Positions 5,681-12,790 of a stretch of 13,357 nucleotides of DNA are shown here, one piece after another (position 1 is the stretch's first letter; the number at the start of each line of letters is the position of its first letter). The notes beneath the pieces are model-generated. The model ran no database searches and was not told the DNA's origin. It saw only the letters and a program-made list of their open reading frames with translations. The stretch comes from an archaeon (GTDB lineage Archaea > SpSt-1190 > DYHY01), in NCBI GenBank assembly GCA_043803745.1, contig JAZDJS010000012.1:1-13357 (forward strand). The letters run 5' to 3'. The translations under genes and the position numbers were made by a program.

Positions 5681-6628
5681 ATGGCAAGAAACAAGAAAAA
5701 CTCCAGGTCATTCGCAGCCTTCGTGATTCTTGCGGCAGTTCTAGTCCTCCTTGCCGGGTGCACTTCAAGCAGGGACGGGAACGCGCCGGCGACCGACAAA
5801 AAAAACGAAGGAACAATAATTTCGATTTCAGACGCGTTTTCATCCGAGGTTTCCGCGAACGAGGGCGAGCTTATCGGGATTACGGCGGAGGTCGAGAACA
5901 CCGGGAGCGTCCCGCTTGAGAATGTCAACGCGATTTTCTACAATTTCGGCTCGAACCTTTTCGGATGTCCGGATGTCTATATCGGCGAGCTTCCTCCTGG
6001 AGAGTCCTACGAGGCGAAATGCGACGTAACCGCAAAGACCCGCGATTCCTGGGGCGACCCCGAGAAAACGAGCTTCACCCAGGAGATTTCCCTCAAAGTC
6101 AGGTATTCCTTCCCGATTTCCGGGGCTTTCGAATCAATAAGGGTGATGTCCCCAGAGGAATATGCGCGCGTAAATCCCGGCTCGAAAACCGAAGAGAAAT
6201 CCGTCGCAATCGGGCCGGTGACGATGAAGGCGGAATTCCAAAAGCAGCCGGCGGTTTCCGGGAGGGATTTCCCAATCAGCCTTTCATTCGCAGCCAGAAC
6301 CTCCAGCACCGAGGGAATCGAAACCTTCGAGGACATGGGGACTGTTGCAAGCGCGCAGCTGCGCGTGCCCGCAAGCTTCTCATTCTCGGGCAAGGGAAGC
6401 TTCGACTCGGCAGGAATTCCGTGCGGCGACGGGAAATACGTCTGCGCGACGAAATCCGGCTGGACTATTTCCGGGAAGAACAGCTCGACCCTTCTTGTGA
6501 ACGTCAGGCCCCCCAGCCTCTCAGTTCCTGAGGAAACCTTCTCCGCACGCTTCGACGCCGAAGGGTTCACGGTTTTCAGGATTGCGAAGAAGAAGATTAC
6601 GGTTTCTGCGGTTTCTTCAGGGGAATAG
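5681..6628 (+). CDS. Putative lipoprotein with CARDB/Ig-like domain
   Basis: Basic N-terminus, hydrophobic stretch and lipobox LLAGC. Ig/CARDB-like ITAEVENTGSVPLENV and IGELPPGES. ATG 5681 lies 1 nt after the upstream stop and is preferred over TTG 5666. Confidence 0.8.
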   Translation: MARNKKNSRSFAAFVILAAVLVLLAGCTSSRDGNAPATDKKNEGTIISISDAFSSEVSANEGELIGITAEVENTGSVPLENVNAIFYNFGSNLFGCPDVYIGELPPGESYEAKCDVTAKTRDSWGDPEKTSFTQEISLKVRYSFPISGAFESIRVMSPEEYARVNPGSKTEEKSVAIGPVTMKAEFQKQPAVSGRDFPISLSFAARTSSTEGIETFEDMGTVASAQLRVPASFSFSGKGSFDSAGIPCGDGKYVCATKSGWTISGKNSSTLLVNVRPPSLSVPEETFSARFDAEGFTVFRIAKKKITVSAVSSGE

Positions 6629-7280: not shown

Positions 7281-8543
7281 CTAGAAGAACTTCGTCAACG
7301 ATTTCTGGGTGATCCCGGAAACGCAGTTTATCTCGCTCGCCCGTTCGACGATAATCCTCTTCATTTCCTCGGAATCGCGCGGGATTATCACCTGCCCGTA
7401 CCGCCCCCCTCCCCCCGGGACGAAGACCACAAAGCCGTCCCTGAATTTCTGGAGCGCGTCCGCAAGCTCCGGATGCTTCGGGGAAATCTCCTCGGGCTTG
7501 AGCTCGAAAAGTATTTTTGTCTCAGTGCCGTAATCCGAGACAATTTCATTGTAGCGCGCCTCGGCTTCGGCAGGGGAAATCCGCATCACCCGCGTTATCA
7601 GGTCAACGAGTGGGATTGTGTACTGGTAAGGGGGCCTCCCGGGCGGGGAAACCGATTGCGCGCCTCCAGAAAGCTTCTCAATCCGGTCCTTGACCCCCAT
7701 CTTTATTATGCTGCCGCAGGAGACGCAGGTGTAACTGAGCGAGCGAGCTTCGTCAATCCCGTATTTCTGGTAGCATTTCGTGCAGGCTGTGCAGTGGTAT
7801 CTGCCTTCCCGCGGGTCGACTCCCGCGTTGAAGACTATTTTCCTCTCCGCCGCTCCCTTCAATGCAAGCTCTATCTCGTTGAAGGAAACCGATTTCACCG
7901 CAAGGCGCATGAATTCTCGCCCAAGCCGGGCCGGGTTTGCGGAATGCGCATCTGAGCCTGAGAGGTAGACGAATGCGCGCAGCTCCTCGACCTTGTCGGC
8001 AAGATATGTGTCAGCGGAAAGCCCGAGCTCAACGAAGGAAAGGAGGCGCGTTGCGGATTTGTAGCATTCGGACAGCGAGGTGAACGTCTTGAAAACGCTT
8101 GTCCATGGAGTGAATGCATGGGCAGGGCCGAAAAGGCAGCCGGAATCAAGGCAGGTGTTCGCAATTGCCTCCCCGGAAAGCCCGACCTTCGGGCGGCCGT
8201 CGAAAGCGAAGTTGTTCGAGAAATTCTCAAGCTTCTCCTTCACATCCTGGAGCGCGGCAAGCCCCGGGAAAATCACAAGGTGGTGCACGGAATCCCTGTC
8301 CTCAAGCTCCCCGGTAAGGATGAATTTGACCCCGTTCTCGTGCGTGAAAATCCCGGTCTCGTCGCTATAGCCCATCTGCTTTATTTCGGCAAGCCAGTCC
8401 GGATGGAGCGCATCCCCCGTGCCGACAAGGGCAAGCCCCTTCTTCCGCGCGCATTCGGCAACGGCGTTTATCGTTATTTCGGGCGAGCATGCCTTTGCAA
8501 AGCGGCTGTGTATGTGCAGGTCGGCATCTATTTCCTGGAGCAT
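7281..8543 (-). CDS. endoQ: Endonuclease Q family protein (PHP domain plus zinc ribbon, TIGR00375-like)
   Basis: DLHIHSRF, GTGDALHP, PAHAFTPWTS, ELGLSAD, SDAHS, GREF, YHCTACTKC...CVSCG..IKMGVKDRI, PGGGGRYG. Confidence 0.92.
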   Translation of the reverse strand: MLQEIDADLHIHSRFAKACSPEITINAVAECARKKGLALVGTGDALHPDWLAEIKQMGYSDETGIFTHENGVKFILTGELEDRDSVHHLVIFPGLAALQDVKEKLENFSNNFAFDGRPKVGLSGEAIANTCLDSGCLFGPAHAFTPWTSVFKTFTSLSECYKSATRLLSFVELGLSADTYLADKVEELRAFVYLSGSDAHSANPARLGREFMRLAVKSVSFNEIELALKGAAERKIVFNAGVDPREGRYHCTACTKCYQKYGIDEARSLSYTCVSCGSIIKMGVKDRIEKLSGGAQSVSPPGRPPYQYTIPLVDLITRVMRISPAEAEARYNEIVSDYGTETKILFELKPEEISPKHPELADALQKFRDGFVVFVPGGGGRYGQVIIPRDSEEMKRIIVERASEINCVSGITQKSLTKFF

Positions 8544-8564: not shown

Positions 8565-8619
8565 GAATTAACTAATTTTGCGGGTTTTGGCCTATTATTT
8601 GGTTGTTTTCACAAGGAAG

Positions 8620-9459
8620 CTAAATTGCCTCTGCGATTTTCTCAGCTTCTGCAATCTGGGCATATGCCGCGTTGATAACTGGCTCGGAAAGATATAGCTT
8701 TTCTAGATTGAGAAGCACACCATCCCCGAACCTTATCAAGGCGTCAAAAATCCCCGGAACCAGGATTTTCCTCTGCGCTTCGGAAGCGAGCTTCTCAGCA
8801 GAAACGGAAATTCCCAGAATCGGGGGAATGTTCTTGGTTTCAATTGTTTTCGGAAGGTAGAGCTCTCCGGCGAAGCAGTCCCCAGTAAATTGATATCTCC
8901 GGAATTCCGATTTGTATGGAATTTCGCCAAGCGGAATATTCGGACCTTTTACAACCTGGCTTTTCCCAAGCTTAACAGGACTTGAGAAAACACCCCCCAC
9001 CGCAGGATCCCCGTCAACCAGTGCGTCAAGATAGGTTTGGAAGGGCGCAAGAACGCCAGGCCTCTGCAGAACGTCATTTGGCAGTTCCAAATCAGTATCT
9101 GCGGTCCGGATTTTTGGGTGTTGCTCAATTGTCGGGACAATGTAGAAACAGTCCGTTTTTCCGCCGGGTGGAATAACTTCCCTGAACTCAAATTTCATTG
9201 AACCGTCGACTAGGTAATTCCTATGCTCTTCAACGGGTTCTGCTTCCGGGGCTGCTGGCGAACTTCCCGCAATAAAATCAACCACTTTATTTACAAACGC
9301 AATGACTGGATTACTGGAATTTCCTTGGTCTTCTAGTTCCTCTGTCGGACCCCATGTGCAGTGGAACTTCAGGTAACCTCTCCCAGCGCCTTTGAAACCG
9401 CTTGTGTTAACGTCATGCCAATTGGCAAGCAAGTCGCCAAAAGGAGTCTGACTTGTCAT
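8620..9459 (-). CDS. Hypothetical protein (orphan, lower GC than flanks)
   Basis: 279-aa ORF with ATG start and its own TATA (TTTAAAA at 9482-9488). No recognisable family motif. Three sampled 60-nt lines are 40-48% GC. Confidence 0.75.
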   Translation of the reverse strand: MTSQTPFGDLLANWHDVNTSGFKGAGRGYLKFHCTWGPTEELEDQGNSSNPVIAFVNKVVDFIAGSSPAAPEAEPVEEHRNYLVDGSMKFEFREVIPPGGKTDCFYIVPTIEQHPKIRTADTDLELPNDVLQRPGVLAPFQTYLDALVDGDPAVGGVFSSPVKLGKSQVVKGPNIPLGEIPYKSEFRRYQFTGDCFAGELYLPKTIETKNIPPILGISVSAEKLASEAQRKILVPGIFDALIRFGDGVLLNLEKLYLSEPVINAAYAQIAEAEKIAEAI

Positions 9460-9481
9460 TCTTACCCGGAGCGGCAGCTGT

Positions 9482-9488
9482 TTTTAAA
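9482..9488 (-). promoter_or_regulatory. TATA box for the 8620..9459 gene
   Basis: TTTAAAA 23-29 nt upstream of ATG 9459. Confidence 0.55.
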
Positions 9489-9521
9489 TGTTACCCTTCC
9501 AAAGGGGTTCCTATGTTTTCT

Positions 9522-9594
9522 TCATCCAATATACCTGAACTCGTCTGGCTTCCCGCCCCTCGAGTCGGAAATCATGGACTTTTCGATTTTCCCT
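9522..9594 (-). repeat. Direct repeat, orphan copy of the PAC2 gene 3' end (att-like)
   Basis: 9529-9589 is identical to 10305-10365 (61 bp). Encodes IEKSMISDSRGGKPDEFRYIG* ending ATT GGA TGA. Confidence 0.95.
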
Positions 9595-9664
9595 CCGGGA
9601 TTTCGCTTCCGCTCAACCTTCTCGAGAAACGCAGTTTTCCCGAACGGGTCTCCACCCAGTCCAG

Positions 9665-10291
9665 TTATTTTTCCAGATTTTTCCCGAATTTCTTCGCATA
9701 ATAGTCCGCTCTCAATCTGAGGAGTTTTTCAAGGAGCATTTTTCCAGTTGCGGTTTTGAAGAGCGGCCCTTCCCGCCCGATTTCCTCCTTTAGGAACCTT
9801 TCATTTGCCTCAACGCCATAGAAAGGCCTTTTCCCCTCGGGCCAAACTGCCCCGAGAACGTCCGCCTCGAAAAGAAGGGTTCCAAGAAGGTTTTTTGCCA
9901 TGCCCAGGCGGTCGTGGGTTCCAACCAGTTCCACAATCTTTCCTTTGTCGCTTTTTGAGAGGAAATCGAAGGACTTTTCCGAGAGAAGTTCGGAAGTCTT
10001 CCGCGCGCCGATTTCTGCGTGGGACTTTTTCGCAGCTTGGACATCTGAATAGTCAGACGAATTTTTCTCATCTCCGAACGTTTCAGAATATCCCCAGTCG
10101 TGGCAATAGCAGGCAATCATGAGAAGCACGCGCCCTTTTTCAGAAACGTTCACCTTTCTCGAAAGAAGTTTCCCATATTTCACGACAGCCTTTGTATGGG
10201 GAACATCGAACTTGCGCCGCCCGTGCTCAAGCTCCGGGAAAATTCGCCTCTTGAGGAGCCGCTCTAGGTTTTTTGAAAGAACGCCCCGCAT
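9665..10291 (-). CDS. HD-domain metal-dependent phosphohydrolase
   Basis: PHTKAV ... IACYCHDWGY ... SHAEIGA ... GTHD ... EADVL matches the H..HD..H..H..D pattern. Starts 6 nt after the PAC2 stop. Confidence 0.88.
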   Translation of the reverse strand: MRGVLSKNLERLLKRRIFPELEHGRRKFDVPHTKAVVKYGKLLSRKVNVSEKGRVLLMIACYCHDWGYSETFGDEKNSSDYSDVQAAKKSHAEIGARKTSELLSEKSFDFLSKSDKGKIVELVGTHDRLGMAKNLLGTLLFEADVLGAVWPEGKRPFYGVEANERFLKEEIGREGPLFKTATGKMLLEKLLRLRADYYAKKFGKNLEK

Positions 10292-10297
10292 TTCTGC

Positions 10298-10369
10298 TTA
10301 CCCGATATACCTGAACTCGTCTGGCTTCCCGCCCCTCGAGTCGGAAATCATGGACTTTTCGATTTCCCT
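10298..10369 (-). repeat. Direct repeat, in-gene copy (PAC2 3' end)
   Basis: Partner of 9522-9594. Ends ATC GGG TAA. Confidence 0.95.
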
Positions 10370-11074
10370 TGCCTTGGCAATTGCCCGGTCCATCTCAACC
10401 GAGCGCTCGTCCAAATCCTTCATGTCAAGCCTGAGCTTCAGAAGCTTGCAGAGCTCGAGCAGCACGTGCTTTGCTGCCTTGGCGTCGGTGAACATGGGCC
10501 GCGAGAGAGTCTCGCCCATGAGGCAGATCCCCTCGACGCCCTCGATTTTACCCAGGCCCAGCAGGAGCCCCGATGCCCCGATTATTATCCCGACGCGCTC
10601 GCCCTTCTCGAACTTCACCCCGAGCTTCTCGTATTTCTTCTTGAATTCCGGCTGCGTGACGGCGCCGATTACCTTCGGAGTTTTCGGAAGGACCGGAACC
10701 CCGAACCCCCCGAGCGTGTACATCTGCTTCACTCCGTAGGGCTTGACGAAATCAAGCATCGCCTTCACAATCTCATAATGTCCGTGGGGCGTCATCGACT
10801 GTATGTCGCCGGTTATTATTATCAGATCCGGCTCCCCCTTCTTTTTCGAGCGGTAGTAGTAGAACTCGTTCCGGGGGAGGTCTATCGTGTCATCCTCGTT
10901 GACGAAAACATGGTAGGGATAGTGGTCGGAATAGAGCTCGGCGAATTTTTTTGCCTTGAGCTTCTCTATGAAATATTCGCTCGCAACCTTCCCTACGTTC
11001 CCTATCCCGGGCAGACCTTCGACAAGAATGGGATTCCTAAGCTTCGGCTTTTCAATTACGTTCCAGATTATCAT
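10298..11074 (-). CDS. Proteasome assembly chaperone PAC2 family protein (PbaB-like by synteny)
   Basis: PILVEGLPGIGNVGK, LIIITGDIQ, YTLGG, IIGASGLLLG, CLMGET, C-terminal RYIG. Conserved position after nop10. Confidence 0.93.
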   Translation of the reverse strand: MIIWNVIEKPKLRNPILVEGLPGIGNVGKVASEYFIEKLKAKKFAELYSDHYPYHVFVNEDDTIDLPRNEFYYYRSKKKGEPDLIIITGDIQSMTPHGHYEIVKAMLDFVKPYGVKQMYTLGGFGVPVLPKTPKVIGAVTQPEFKKKYEKLGVKFEKGERVGIIIGASGLLLGLGKIEGVEGICLMGETLSRPMFTDAKAAKHVLLELCKLLKLRLDMKDLDERSVEMDRAIAKAREIEKSMISDSRGGKPDEFRYIG

Positions 11075-11134
11075 TTTTCCTTCGCTCCATTTGTTTTTGT
11101 TCTAGCCCAGCTTTCTTGCTGGATTTCGTTTCAC

Positions 11135-12287: not shown

Positions 12288-12494
12288 TCAGTCGAACACC
12301 TCAATTATCTTCACGGCCCTTTCGTTTATCAGGCCGCCCTTCGGCTCGACGAGAACCGAATCGCAGACAAGGCATTTTACAATGTTTGCCGGCTTGTTGA
12401 AGATAATCTGCTCGTTCTTGCATTTCTCGCACTTGACCTTCATGAACCTTGACGAGGGGCTCGGTATTGCCTCCCCTTTCTTGCGTTTCACCAT
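12288..12494 (-). CDS. rps27e: 30S ribosomal protein S27e
   Basis: SRFMKVKCEKCKNEQIIF...VKCLVC..VLVEPKGG. Likely start is ATG 12494 (68 aa). The 154-aa track ORF overextends into rpl44e. Confidence 0.95.
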   Translation of the reverse strand: MVKRKKGEAIPSPSSRFMKVKCEKCKNEQIIFNKPANIVKCLVCDSVLVEPKGGLINERAVKIIEVFD

Positions 12495-12499
12495 TTTGT

Positions 12500-12790
12500 T
12501 TATTTGCTCTCCTTCTTCGCTATTTCGAATTTTTTGGCGCGGAACGTGCGGGTCCTCGGCCTCTGCTTTTTGCAGACGGTGCACTCCATCCGGAGATCCT
12601 TTCTCCTCGCAGCCTTTTCGCCGGACGGCTTCGGCCTCGGGAATCCAGTATAGCCGACCGTTTTTCTCCTGTATCTGCGCTGTCCCTCGGCAAGCTCGCT
12701 TGCCTTGTGCTTTTTGACCAGGAGGAGGTGGTGCAAGGTATGCTTCTTGCATTTCGGGCAGTATCCCTGTATGTCCTTGGGTAATTTCAT
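12500..12790 (-). CDS. rpl44e: 50S ribosomal protein L44e
   Basis: MKLPK....YCPKCKKHT.H, GQRRY.RK..GY.GFPRP, LRMECTVCKK. Confidence 0.97.
   Translation of the reverse strand: MKLPKDIQGYCPKCKKHTLHHLLLVKKHKASELAEGQRRYRRKTVGYTGFPRPKPSGEKAARRKDLRMECTVCKKQRPRTRTFRAKKFEIAKKESK

Follow-up and report, generated by a model that had tools for sequence, protein, structure and literature searches.

Archaeal integrative elements leave relics of tRNA-gene attachment sites in their hosts ('gene capture'). In naturally transformable bacteria, homology-facilitated illegitimate recombination combines one-sided homology with a microhomology join and usually deletes recipient DNA; to our knowledge, it has not been reported as a recurrent footprint in archaeal genomes, and our literature searches returned nothing on the subject. 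Here we analyse a 13,357-nt stretch of DNA (the window), which is the whole of contig JAZDJS010000012.1 (C12) of a metagenome-assembled archaeal genome (G000; 1.23 Mb, 51 contigs, 90.02% complete, 0.6% contamination), in which the 3′ tail of a gene of the PAC2 proteasome assembly chaperone family is repeated on the far side of a single inserted gene for an HD-domain protein. The footprint is repeated across G000, both with cargo and without it, and seems to be a record of recombination with diverged alleles. A close described counterpart is the e14 prophage in the E. coli icd gene, an element of about 15 kb. In the extracts available from PMC13626634, e14 replaces the 3′ end of icd with its own near-synonymous copy, the original C-terminal fragment persists at the far end as a pseudogene, and the two recombine on excision through the element's own SOS-induced site-specific recombination.

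As far as those extracts go, the PAC2 locus resembles e14/icd in its direct repeats of the target 3′ end and in the displaced tail left as an apparent pseudogene. It differs in that the unit measures 776 bp and encodes the HD protein alone, with no recombinase found in the unit or in G000. With integron cassettes it shares a single open reading frame (ORF) of <1 kb, apparently without its own promoter, a position downstream of a transcribed region and potential excision as a small circle, but it lacks an attC-like structure, IntI/PF00589 and a cassette array, and its flanking repeat is the host gene's own tail, which varies from site to site. Compared with homology-facilitated illegitimate recombination, one junction would likewise be homologous and in register and the other marked by a few bases of microhomology, with foreign DNA added beside a conserved anchor gene; here, however, 20-85 nt of the recipient would be duplicated. 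As in microhomology-mediated tandem duplication, short direct duplications are tolerated across gene ends and tandem units follow several tRNAs, whereas the PAC2 unit holds foreign cargo and its copies differ in a coding-constrained way. Finally, as in tRNA attachment-site relics, parts of tRNA 3′ ends recur in G000 beyond the intact gene, on its downstream side, but at spacings of 52-283 nt, with no element genes between the copies and no SSV-type or other integrase fragments detected. In the literature searched, supplements excluded, no paper turned up that reports gene-tail relics in Altiarchaeota or comparable cassettes without an integrase.

Architecture of the PAC2 locus

A repeat search of the window returned a single family, comprising direct repeats at 9526-9592 and 10302-10368 (67 nt, 97% identical, 776 nt from start to start) with two mismatches (9528/10304 and 9590/10366) and an exact 61-nt core (9529-9589 = 10305-10365). 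This bears out the original prediction, made from the sequence, that 61 bp of the PAC2 3′ end recur identically 776 bp away. Judging from 4^61, an exact 61-mer occurring twice in 13 kb should lie far beyond chance. When the whole 1.23-Mb genome was searched with a 205-nt stretch (9460-9664), the only matches were the stretch itself and the PAC2 end. The parts of the locus are as follows.

10298..11074, minus strand: PAC2 (proteasome assembly chaperone family) gene, 258 aa (PF09754, TIGR00162), the last conserved gene of an S27e-eIF2alpha-Nop10-PAC2 run
10302..10368, minus strand: repeat copy A, the live PAC2 3′ tail (...EIEKSMISDSRGGKPDEFRYIG, stop TAA 10298-10300), from repeat search and alignment
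9665..10291, minus strand: predicted HD-domain phosphohydrolase gene, 208 aa, the cargo (PF01966), with its ATG 6 nt past the PAC2 stop
9593..9664, minus strand: 72-nt non-coding stretch from the HD stop to copy B, without a significant fold, its 3′ end forming the non-homologous junction
9522..9599, minus strand: repeat copy B, the putative PAC2 pseudo-tail, with stop TGA at 9522-9524 and exact core 9529-9589, from alignment and tblastn

Read in the PAC2 frame, copy B encodes KIEKSMISDSRGGKPDEFRYIG followed by its own stop, TGA, at 9522-9524, and its differences from the live tail near the 3′ end are silent (ATC/ATT and GGG/GGA) or stop-to-stop (TAA/TGA). A tblastn search with PAC2 recovers it at 81% identity over residues 233-258. 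Its 5′ edge differs from the live PAC2 tail by one E/K change or a 1-nt indel, and similarity stops sharply there, with none to PAC2 upstream beyond AGGGAAA. In our own reading, a 1-nt indel in the A-run would add 7 nt (AGGGAAA) of similarity, up to about 9599. Because the PAC2 frame and a stop of its own are kept, the near-end differences are silent or stop-to-stop and PAC2 similarity goes no further upstream, copy B is, judged from its sequence, a displaced, untranslated PAC2 tail (pseudo-tail).

PAC2 itself is intact and clearly assigned, matching PF09754 with E 4.7e-49 (residues 17-234 against model positions 1-213 of 215) and TIGR00162 with 257.7 bits, over the cut-off of 200. The protein is 88% identical to that of the same-genus genome G001, and both end in ...RYIG*. 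The view that the insertion had restored PAC2 is thus consistent with the locus, and recombination between the repeats would leave the same PAC2 protein. Its tail folds somewhat better than shuffled sequences (z -2.46; 3/200 shuffles), a value on which we build nothing. Gene coordinates likewise confirmed that the HD ATG lies 6 nt past the PAC2 stop, which leaves no apparent room for its own promoter, and because the start is so close, HD is most likely transcribed by read-through from the translation-gene operon.

Recurrence across the genome

Comparing G000 with itself (repeats of ≥20 nt and ≥85% identity, spaced 40-3000 nt apart), we found 53 direct-repeat loci, 30 of them with short spacing (≤150 nt), and no inverted-repeat loci. 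With an ArgRS-like case added from a scan of gene tails, the 54 loci were classed by our own crude gene calls and scripts as lying within one gene (17, protein repeats), at protein-gene 3′ ends (15), at tRNA 3′ ends (4), at tRNA 5′ ends (2), at protein-gene 5′ ends (2) or elsewhere (14). Two further tRNA 3′-end cases were recognized by eye, at tRNA-His on C10 (gene-internal according to the script) and tRNA-Ser on C28 (a protein-gene 5′ end according to the script). After C30, a low-complexity repeat, was dropped, 14 protein-gene 3′-end duplications remained. A scan for other gene ends duplicated around single genes had been proposed along with the original prediction; among these 14, it identified four with cargo, spanning 0.77-1.15 kb.

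C12, spacing 776 nt: PAC2 with HD
C19, spacing 769 nt: AlaX-like gene with a 212-aa ORF
C33, spacing 1149 nt: gene for a 1478-aa surface-type protein, with a 148-aa ORF and a PF01909 nucleotidyltransferase
C50, spacing 1026 nt: ArgRS-like gene (our own reading), with a 116-aa ORF and a PF01909 nucleotidyltransferase

The four cargo sites have no repeat motif or cassette end in common. The larger cargo proteins on C33 and C50 match PF01909 with E 1.1e-7 and 6.1e-5, respectively, while for their partners of 148 aa and 116 aa no Pfam or PADLOC match was obtained at E 0.01; HEPN, as a label for these partners, is a guess from their position. Both pairs look like toxin-antitoxin modules, and nucleotidyltransferase pairs are typical mobile cargo.

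The other ten tail duplications carry no cargo, and their spacers measure just 73-143 nt, usually with a hairpin. Similar duplications accompany tRNA genes: nine of ten that we inspected from the repeat list have a downstream copy of their 3′-terminal bases, exact or near-exact, together with flank, and in five of the nine the last 12 nt recur exactly 52-283 nt downstream. Because the same build occurs without cargo (at 73-143 nt) and at tRNA ends, the tail duplications are better read as a general footprint of recombination than as a cassette system.

Several further observations concern these repeats. The nine tRNA genes (C21:52591-52830, C21:74662-74867, C4:8573-8769, C44:4992-5350, C6:1715-1993, C28:17923-18329, C21:19903-20157, C10:23010-23159 and C19:14407-14754) each carry, downstream, one to three extra copies of the terminal 12-21 nt along with flank, and the copies are not separated by element genes. 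Mirror-image cases, in which the start of a gene is repeated 74-211 nt upstream of the intact gene, occur at C19:3620-3789, C16:13974-14260 and C9:6391-6512; the genes are tRNA-Ala and tRNA-Cys (first 20-25 nt) and a protein gene (start region). A T-rich motif, CTTTTTGACC ... GACTTTTTC ... GAAAAAGGGG, is found in the tail-duplication spacers of C11 (3718-3804) and C50 (14540-14591) and beside a tRNA-Leu gene (C42:16411-16461). We read it as an ordinary terminator-type flank; it may also be a very small repeat element. A mobile spacer element common to the loci was rejected, as the other spacers share nothing.

Divergence between live and displaced tails

Together, the 14 tail pairs hold 123 identical and 35 differing codons, and 21 of these 35 differences keep the amino acid or exchange one stop for another. 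If single-base changes fell at random, 22.5% of them would be silent (P 2e-6); the figure rises to 37% under a model with silent changes only in the live copy and free decay of the relic (P 0.004). In one pair, both copies encode VVGLERV* despite 7 nucleotide differences. Similarity in the ArgRS-like and thermosome-like pairs (our own reading of the genes) continues past the stop into a diverged, still pairing terminator hairpin, as would be expected of two alleles of one locus. Given the excess of silent differences, the relics resemble the 3′ ends of functional alleles that had diverged, and would have done so while coding in another genome, and not fresh target-site duplications.

These data bear on an origin in place, in which microhomology-mediated tandem duplication across the PAC2 stop was followed by insertion of HD and by drift of the live copy at silent sites. 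Perfect tandem units starting in gene ends do occur in G000 (82 nt after tRNA-Glu, 64 nt after tRNA-Arg), several tail pairs are 100% identical (C11, C50, C2), and duplication of this type is described as widespread (PMC13167724; 2026 bioRxiv preprint). However, 21 silent differences of 35 exceed what this model allows (P 0.004), so that the relics would have been coding while diverging; the ArgRS-like terminator has diverged yet still pairs; four loci would each need two independent events at the same few bases; and the PAC2 tail duplication is seen in 0 of 29 PAC2 loci of relatives, each examined with 1.5 kb of flank. We therefore regard duplication in place as quite unlikely.

An insertion hot spot downstream of PAC2

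On the minus strand, the genes run in the order S27e, eIF2alpha, Nop10, PAC2, HD (208 aa), 279-aa ORF and TIGR00375-family gene. The part of the locus beyond copy B comprises the following.

9460..9521, minus strand: spacer of 62 nt containing a small hairpin (9493-9508) as well as TTTAAAAA (9481-9488), which resembles a TATA box and lies 21 nt ahead of the next ATG
8620..9459, minus strand: ORF of 279 aa that has no relatives, the second insertion specific to this genome within the PAC2-TIGR00375 spacer
7281..8543, minus strand: gene of the TIGR00375 family, 420 aa, conserved as the next gene downstream of PAC2, from its TIGR00375 match

We take TTTAAAAA to be only a candidate TATA box, on the basis of its sequence and the archaeal consensus. 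The hairpin comes from a sigma-70 promoter and terminator scan that is unsuited to archaea, and of its output we used the hairpin alone. The TIGR00375 match (E 4.5e-90, 302.7 bits) is below the cut-off of 326.6. At the run's opposite end, the S27e ORF (12288-12752, minus strand) encodes 154 aa, of which the S27e domain covers residues 99-141 only; either the true start lies further downstream or the protein has an N-terminal extension.

We compared the locus with its counterparts in relatives, looking for empty sites or other cargo as the original prediction had suggested, and found the spacer either empty or with other content. PAC2 is present in 40 of the 41 genomes searched, and both HD and the 279-aa ORF in one of 41, G000 alone. 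In G001, PAC2 is followed by a 495-nt spacer without HD and then by the TIGR00375 gene. With PAC2 as query, the metagenome_contigs collection gave seven loci, of which a single one is close (L054, 88%); this metagenome contig, ~90% identical to G001, carries a different 142-aa ORF on the opposite strand directly past the PAC2 stop. The TIGR00375 gene follows PAC2 in 14 of 30 loci examined, and the gap between the two genes ranges from 14-45 nt in four loci (the G002 and G004 loci, L021 and L026) to ~499 nt in G001, ~919 in L054, ~962 in G003 and 1754 here. On this comparison, the PAC2-TIGR00375 spacer is an insertion hot spot in this family of small archaea. A non-coding stretch of ~410 nt upstream of the TIGR00375 gene, ~90% conserved between two members of the genus, L034 of G001 (6102-6510) and L054 (5233-5640), is absent from G000. 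An Rfam search of the window, L034 and L054 gave 0 matches.

The HD gene is, by its sequence features, a real and intact gene. Its product is predicted to belong to the HD-domain metal-dependent phosphohydrolases (PF01966, E 4.5e-7, 30.6 bits against a cut-off of 22), and the metal-binding residues H32, H64-D65, H91, H126-D127, E142 and D144 do not vary among 17 family members, HD itself being one of them. An exhaustive HMMER search returned 165 relatives at E ≤1e-3, the best of them 33-40% identical and ~200 aa long, and the nearest Atlas clusters are bacterial; the family looks mostly bacterial. The nearest solved relative by sequence is YedJ, an uncharacterised protein (3gw7, E 7.3e-5). A profile of the HD family gave weak generic HD matches only, in 4 of 16 other genomes of the phylum; no related locus was found in the genome_contigs collection, and a word-based search of 5.8 billion proteins returned HD itself only.

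GC content at third codon positions (GC3) is 0.55 in HD and 0.47 in the 279-aa ORF, against 0.745 in PAC2 and 0.71 in the TIGR00375 gene, so that both genes are compositionally atypical. Together with its restriction to one of 41 genomes and the G001 site without HD, this supports the original proposal of a single-gene insertion, in which HD would be a recently acquired accessory gene. HD fixed here in relatives, a finding that would have spoken against this proposal, was seen in 0 of 40.

The 776-bp unit would not be the sole insertion here, because the 279-aa ORF, which lies outside the repeats, is also specific to G000. This ORF has no Pfam, NCBIfam, PHROG or PADLOC match, finds only itself among the 5.8 billion proteins and is absent from 40 of 40 relatives. 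Its Atlas model has a predicted local distance difference test (pLDDT) score of 0.41, and an in-house codon-usage gene caller rejects it.

The unit could also have arrived as a circle of 776 bp, made up of HD, the 72-nt stretch and one repeat, that integrated by Campbell-type homologous recombination through the 61-nt identity, leaves in the same way and spreads among near-identical strains only. An exact 61-nt block with diverged edges fits a crossover inside the identity, and no site-specific enzyme is required. However, neither HD nor the 72-nt stretch (9593-9664) turned up a second time in G000 or the collections searched; such a circle leaves the origin of the first copy unexplained and is inapplicable to the cases with 73-143-nt spacers. 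We consider it very unlikely.

Search for a recombination system

The tyrosine recombinase family PF00589 gave 0 matches in G000, whereas 14 of 14 control genomes were matched; the trans-acting XerA or other tyrosine recombinase envisaged in the original prediction thus did not turn up. PF01797, PF01867, PF07282 and PF00078 had no match in G000, and PF00239 gave a single match of 16.9 bits, under its cut-off; no serine recombinase, Y1 transposase, TnpB, Cas1 or reverse transcriptase was thus found there. These negatives cover the 90%-complete G000 assembly. PF00589 is present in 4 of 17 genomes of the phylum, with two matches in G001 and none in G004; if its absence is real, most of these archaea would be without a recognisable XerA-type dimer resolvase.

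Folded as single-stranded DNA, the cassette end (9593-9664) and the longer stretch 9522-9664 do no better than shuffled sequences (z -0.44 and -0.63), and an attC-like fold was rejected. An integron cassette is not supported, with no attC-like fold and no PF00589 integrase, and a diversity-generating retroelement was rejected, since PF00078 has 0 matches in G000 and the changes between the copies (C/T, G/A and A/G) run both ways. Of the original picture of an integron-cassette-like insertion, the acquired single-gene unit and the intact PAC2 hold up, while no recombinase, attC-like fold or common motif was found.

A miniature non-autonomous integrative cassette might still use the PAC2 tail as its attachment site, draw on a recombinase in trans and be excised as a 776-bp circle. 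Direct repeats of a target 3′ end with silent differences form a classical integrase footprint, as the available extracts on e14 and icd/icdC describe; four sites have small cargo (0.77-1.15 kb), two of them nucleotidyltransferase pairs; tyrosine recombinases occur in the same genus; and a recombinase could lie in the unassembled part of G000. Against this, no recombinase of six families is detectable in G000, and G004 also has gene-end duplications despite its lack of PF00589. In addition, the sites share no common core or attC-like fold, and they grade into cargo-less spacings of 73-143 nt, too small for a double-stranded circle. We judge a cassette mobilised in trans unlikely. Given that no recombinase was found, that the targets vary and that the build passes by degrees into cargo-less cases of a length insufficient for circles, a dedicated integron-like or site-specific system is not supported by these sequence comparisons.

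Short-range repeats in other genomes

Repeats with short spacing (≤150 nt) were also counted in other genomes.

G000: 30 in 1.23 Mb
G001: 4 in 305 kb, after repeats flanking N runs were dropped
G004: 2 in 200 kb
G003: 1 in 96 kb
G006: 1 in 100 kb
G005 and G012: 0 in 297 kb
Eight outgroup archaea, pooled: 3 in ~1.06 Mb

A phylum-wide enrichment of this class was rejected, as G000, and perhaps G001, are the only ones to stand out, and on these samples a lineage-wide claim is unjustified. In an unrelated archaeon (G017, L165:6565-7334), a perfect 40-nt direct repeat with a spacing of 730 nt might be a cargo-type case like PAC2/HD.

These counts also bear on an assembly artefact, in which two strain variants would have been joined in tandem. 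The pattern does resemble two alleles in tandem, the genome is metagenome-assembled, and two perfect 55-nt duplications in G001 (C6:81506-81715 and C6:579-1047) flank N runs and are scaffolding artefacts, which we excluded from the counts. A look-up of sequencing runs covering 8600-11100 of the window returned none. G000, however, contains no N, and its contig ends overlap by exactly 141 nt, which implies that the assembly words exceeded the repeat in length. Where the 72-nt stretch meets copy B, the junction has ≤7 nt in common with PAC2, probably too little for a graph join given how assemblers work, and G005 and G012, fragmented genomes of the same phylum, show no short-range case. We give this artefact only a slight chance. 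The 141-nt end overlaps, at 100% identity, link six pairs of contigs (C1/C4, C25/C46, C26/C51, C29/C39, C39/C44 and C40/C48), which could probably be joined.

Discussion

We tentatively favour, with a little less than even confidence, additive, integrase-independent recombination with DNA from a diverged relative or a co-existing haplotype; its donor, the order of events and the enzymology are parts of this explanation that we infer. The incoming DNA would have carried a PAC2 end beside a different downstream gene and would have been added to the chromosome without replacing the resident allele. The first junction would be homologous and in register, inside the PAC2 tail, and the second illegitimate, 72 nt past HD, with microhomology of ≤7 nt (AGGGAAA). 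If the illegitimate join landed 20-85 nt upstream of the point of departure, the resident stretch in between would be copied twice. The route could be strand invasion by one end, or template switching at a stalled fork, in either case completed by a microhomology join, and neither a dedicated integrase nor an attachment site would be required. The 61-nt copies would then permit loss of the 776-bp unit through recombination or slippage. The last arrival could have been HD, or else the relic together with the 279-aa ORF; either order would fit.

Several points weigh against this explanation. The repeats are identical over 61 nt, yet 3 of the next 9 nt differ, a sharp change that a diverged donor explains poorly; the identical block may be resident sequence copied twice, or later homogenised. 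By analogy with e14 and icd/icdC, as far as the available extracts describe them, an integrase-borne element also leaves a displaced tail with silent differences, and the pattern alone is compatible with an integrase. No donor or parental haplotype was found: an exact search with a 40-nt core gave 0 matches in metagenome_contigs and 0 in genome_contigs. Short-range enrichment is clear for G000 only, and perhaps for G001. The locus structure rests on a single contig of a metagenome-assembled genome that is only 90% complete, and gene calls and repeat classes come from our own crude scripts.

More broadly, this archaeon, and possibly its relatives, might routinely gain small genes at resident 3′ ends through integrase-independent, homology-anchored additive recombination, with displaced gene and tRNA tails staying behind as relics and repeats of 20-85 nt making the gains reversible. 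We consider this generalization possible but doubtful.

How genes enter small, reduced archaeal genomes in which integrases and transposases are scarce is poorly understood, although the content of these genomes varies. PAC2/HD and its sister loci offer a concrete footprint, in which the gene end would serve as the homology anchor and the displaced tail as a record of the event and of donor divergence. Should the pattern stem from the assembly instead, it would serve as a useful caution for mixed-strain assemblies. If the generalization is true, it would amount to a general, enzyme-poor exchange of cassettes in small genomes without recognisable mobile-element machinery. If the footprint is borne out by reads, the signature could serve for dating and counting gene gains in metagenome-assembled genomes, and it may help to explain how nucleotidyltransferase-type modules spread without mobile-element genes.

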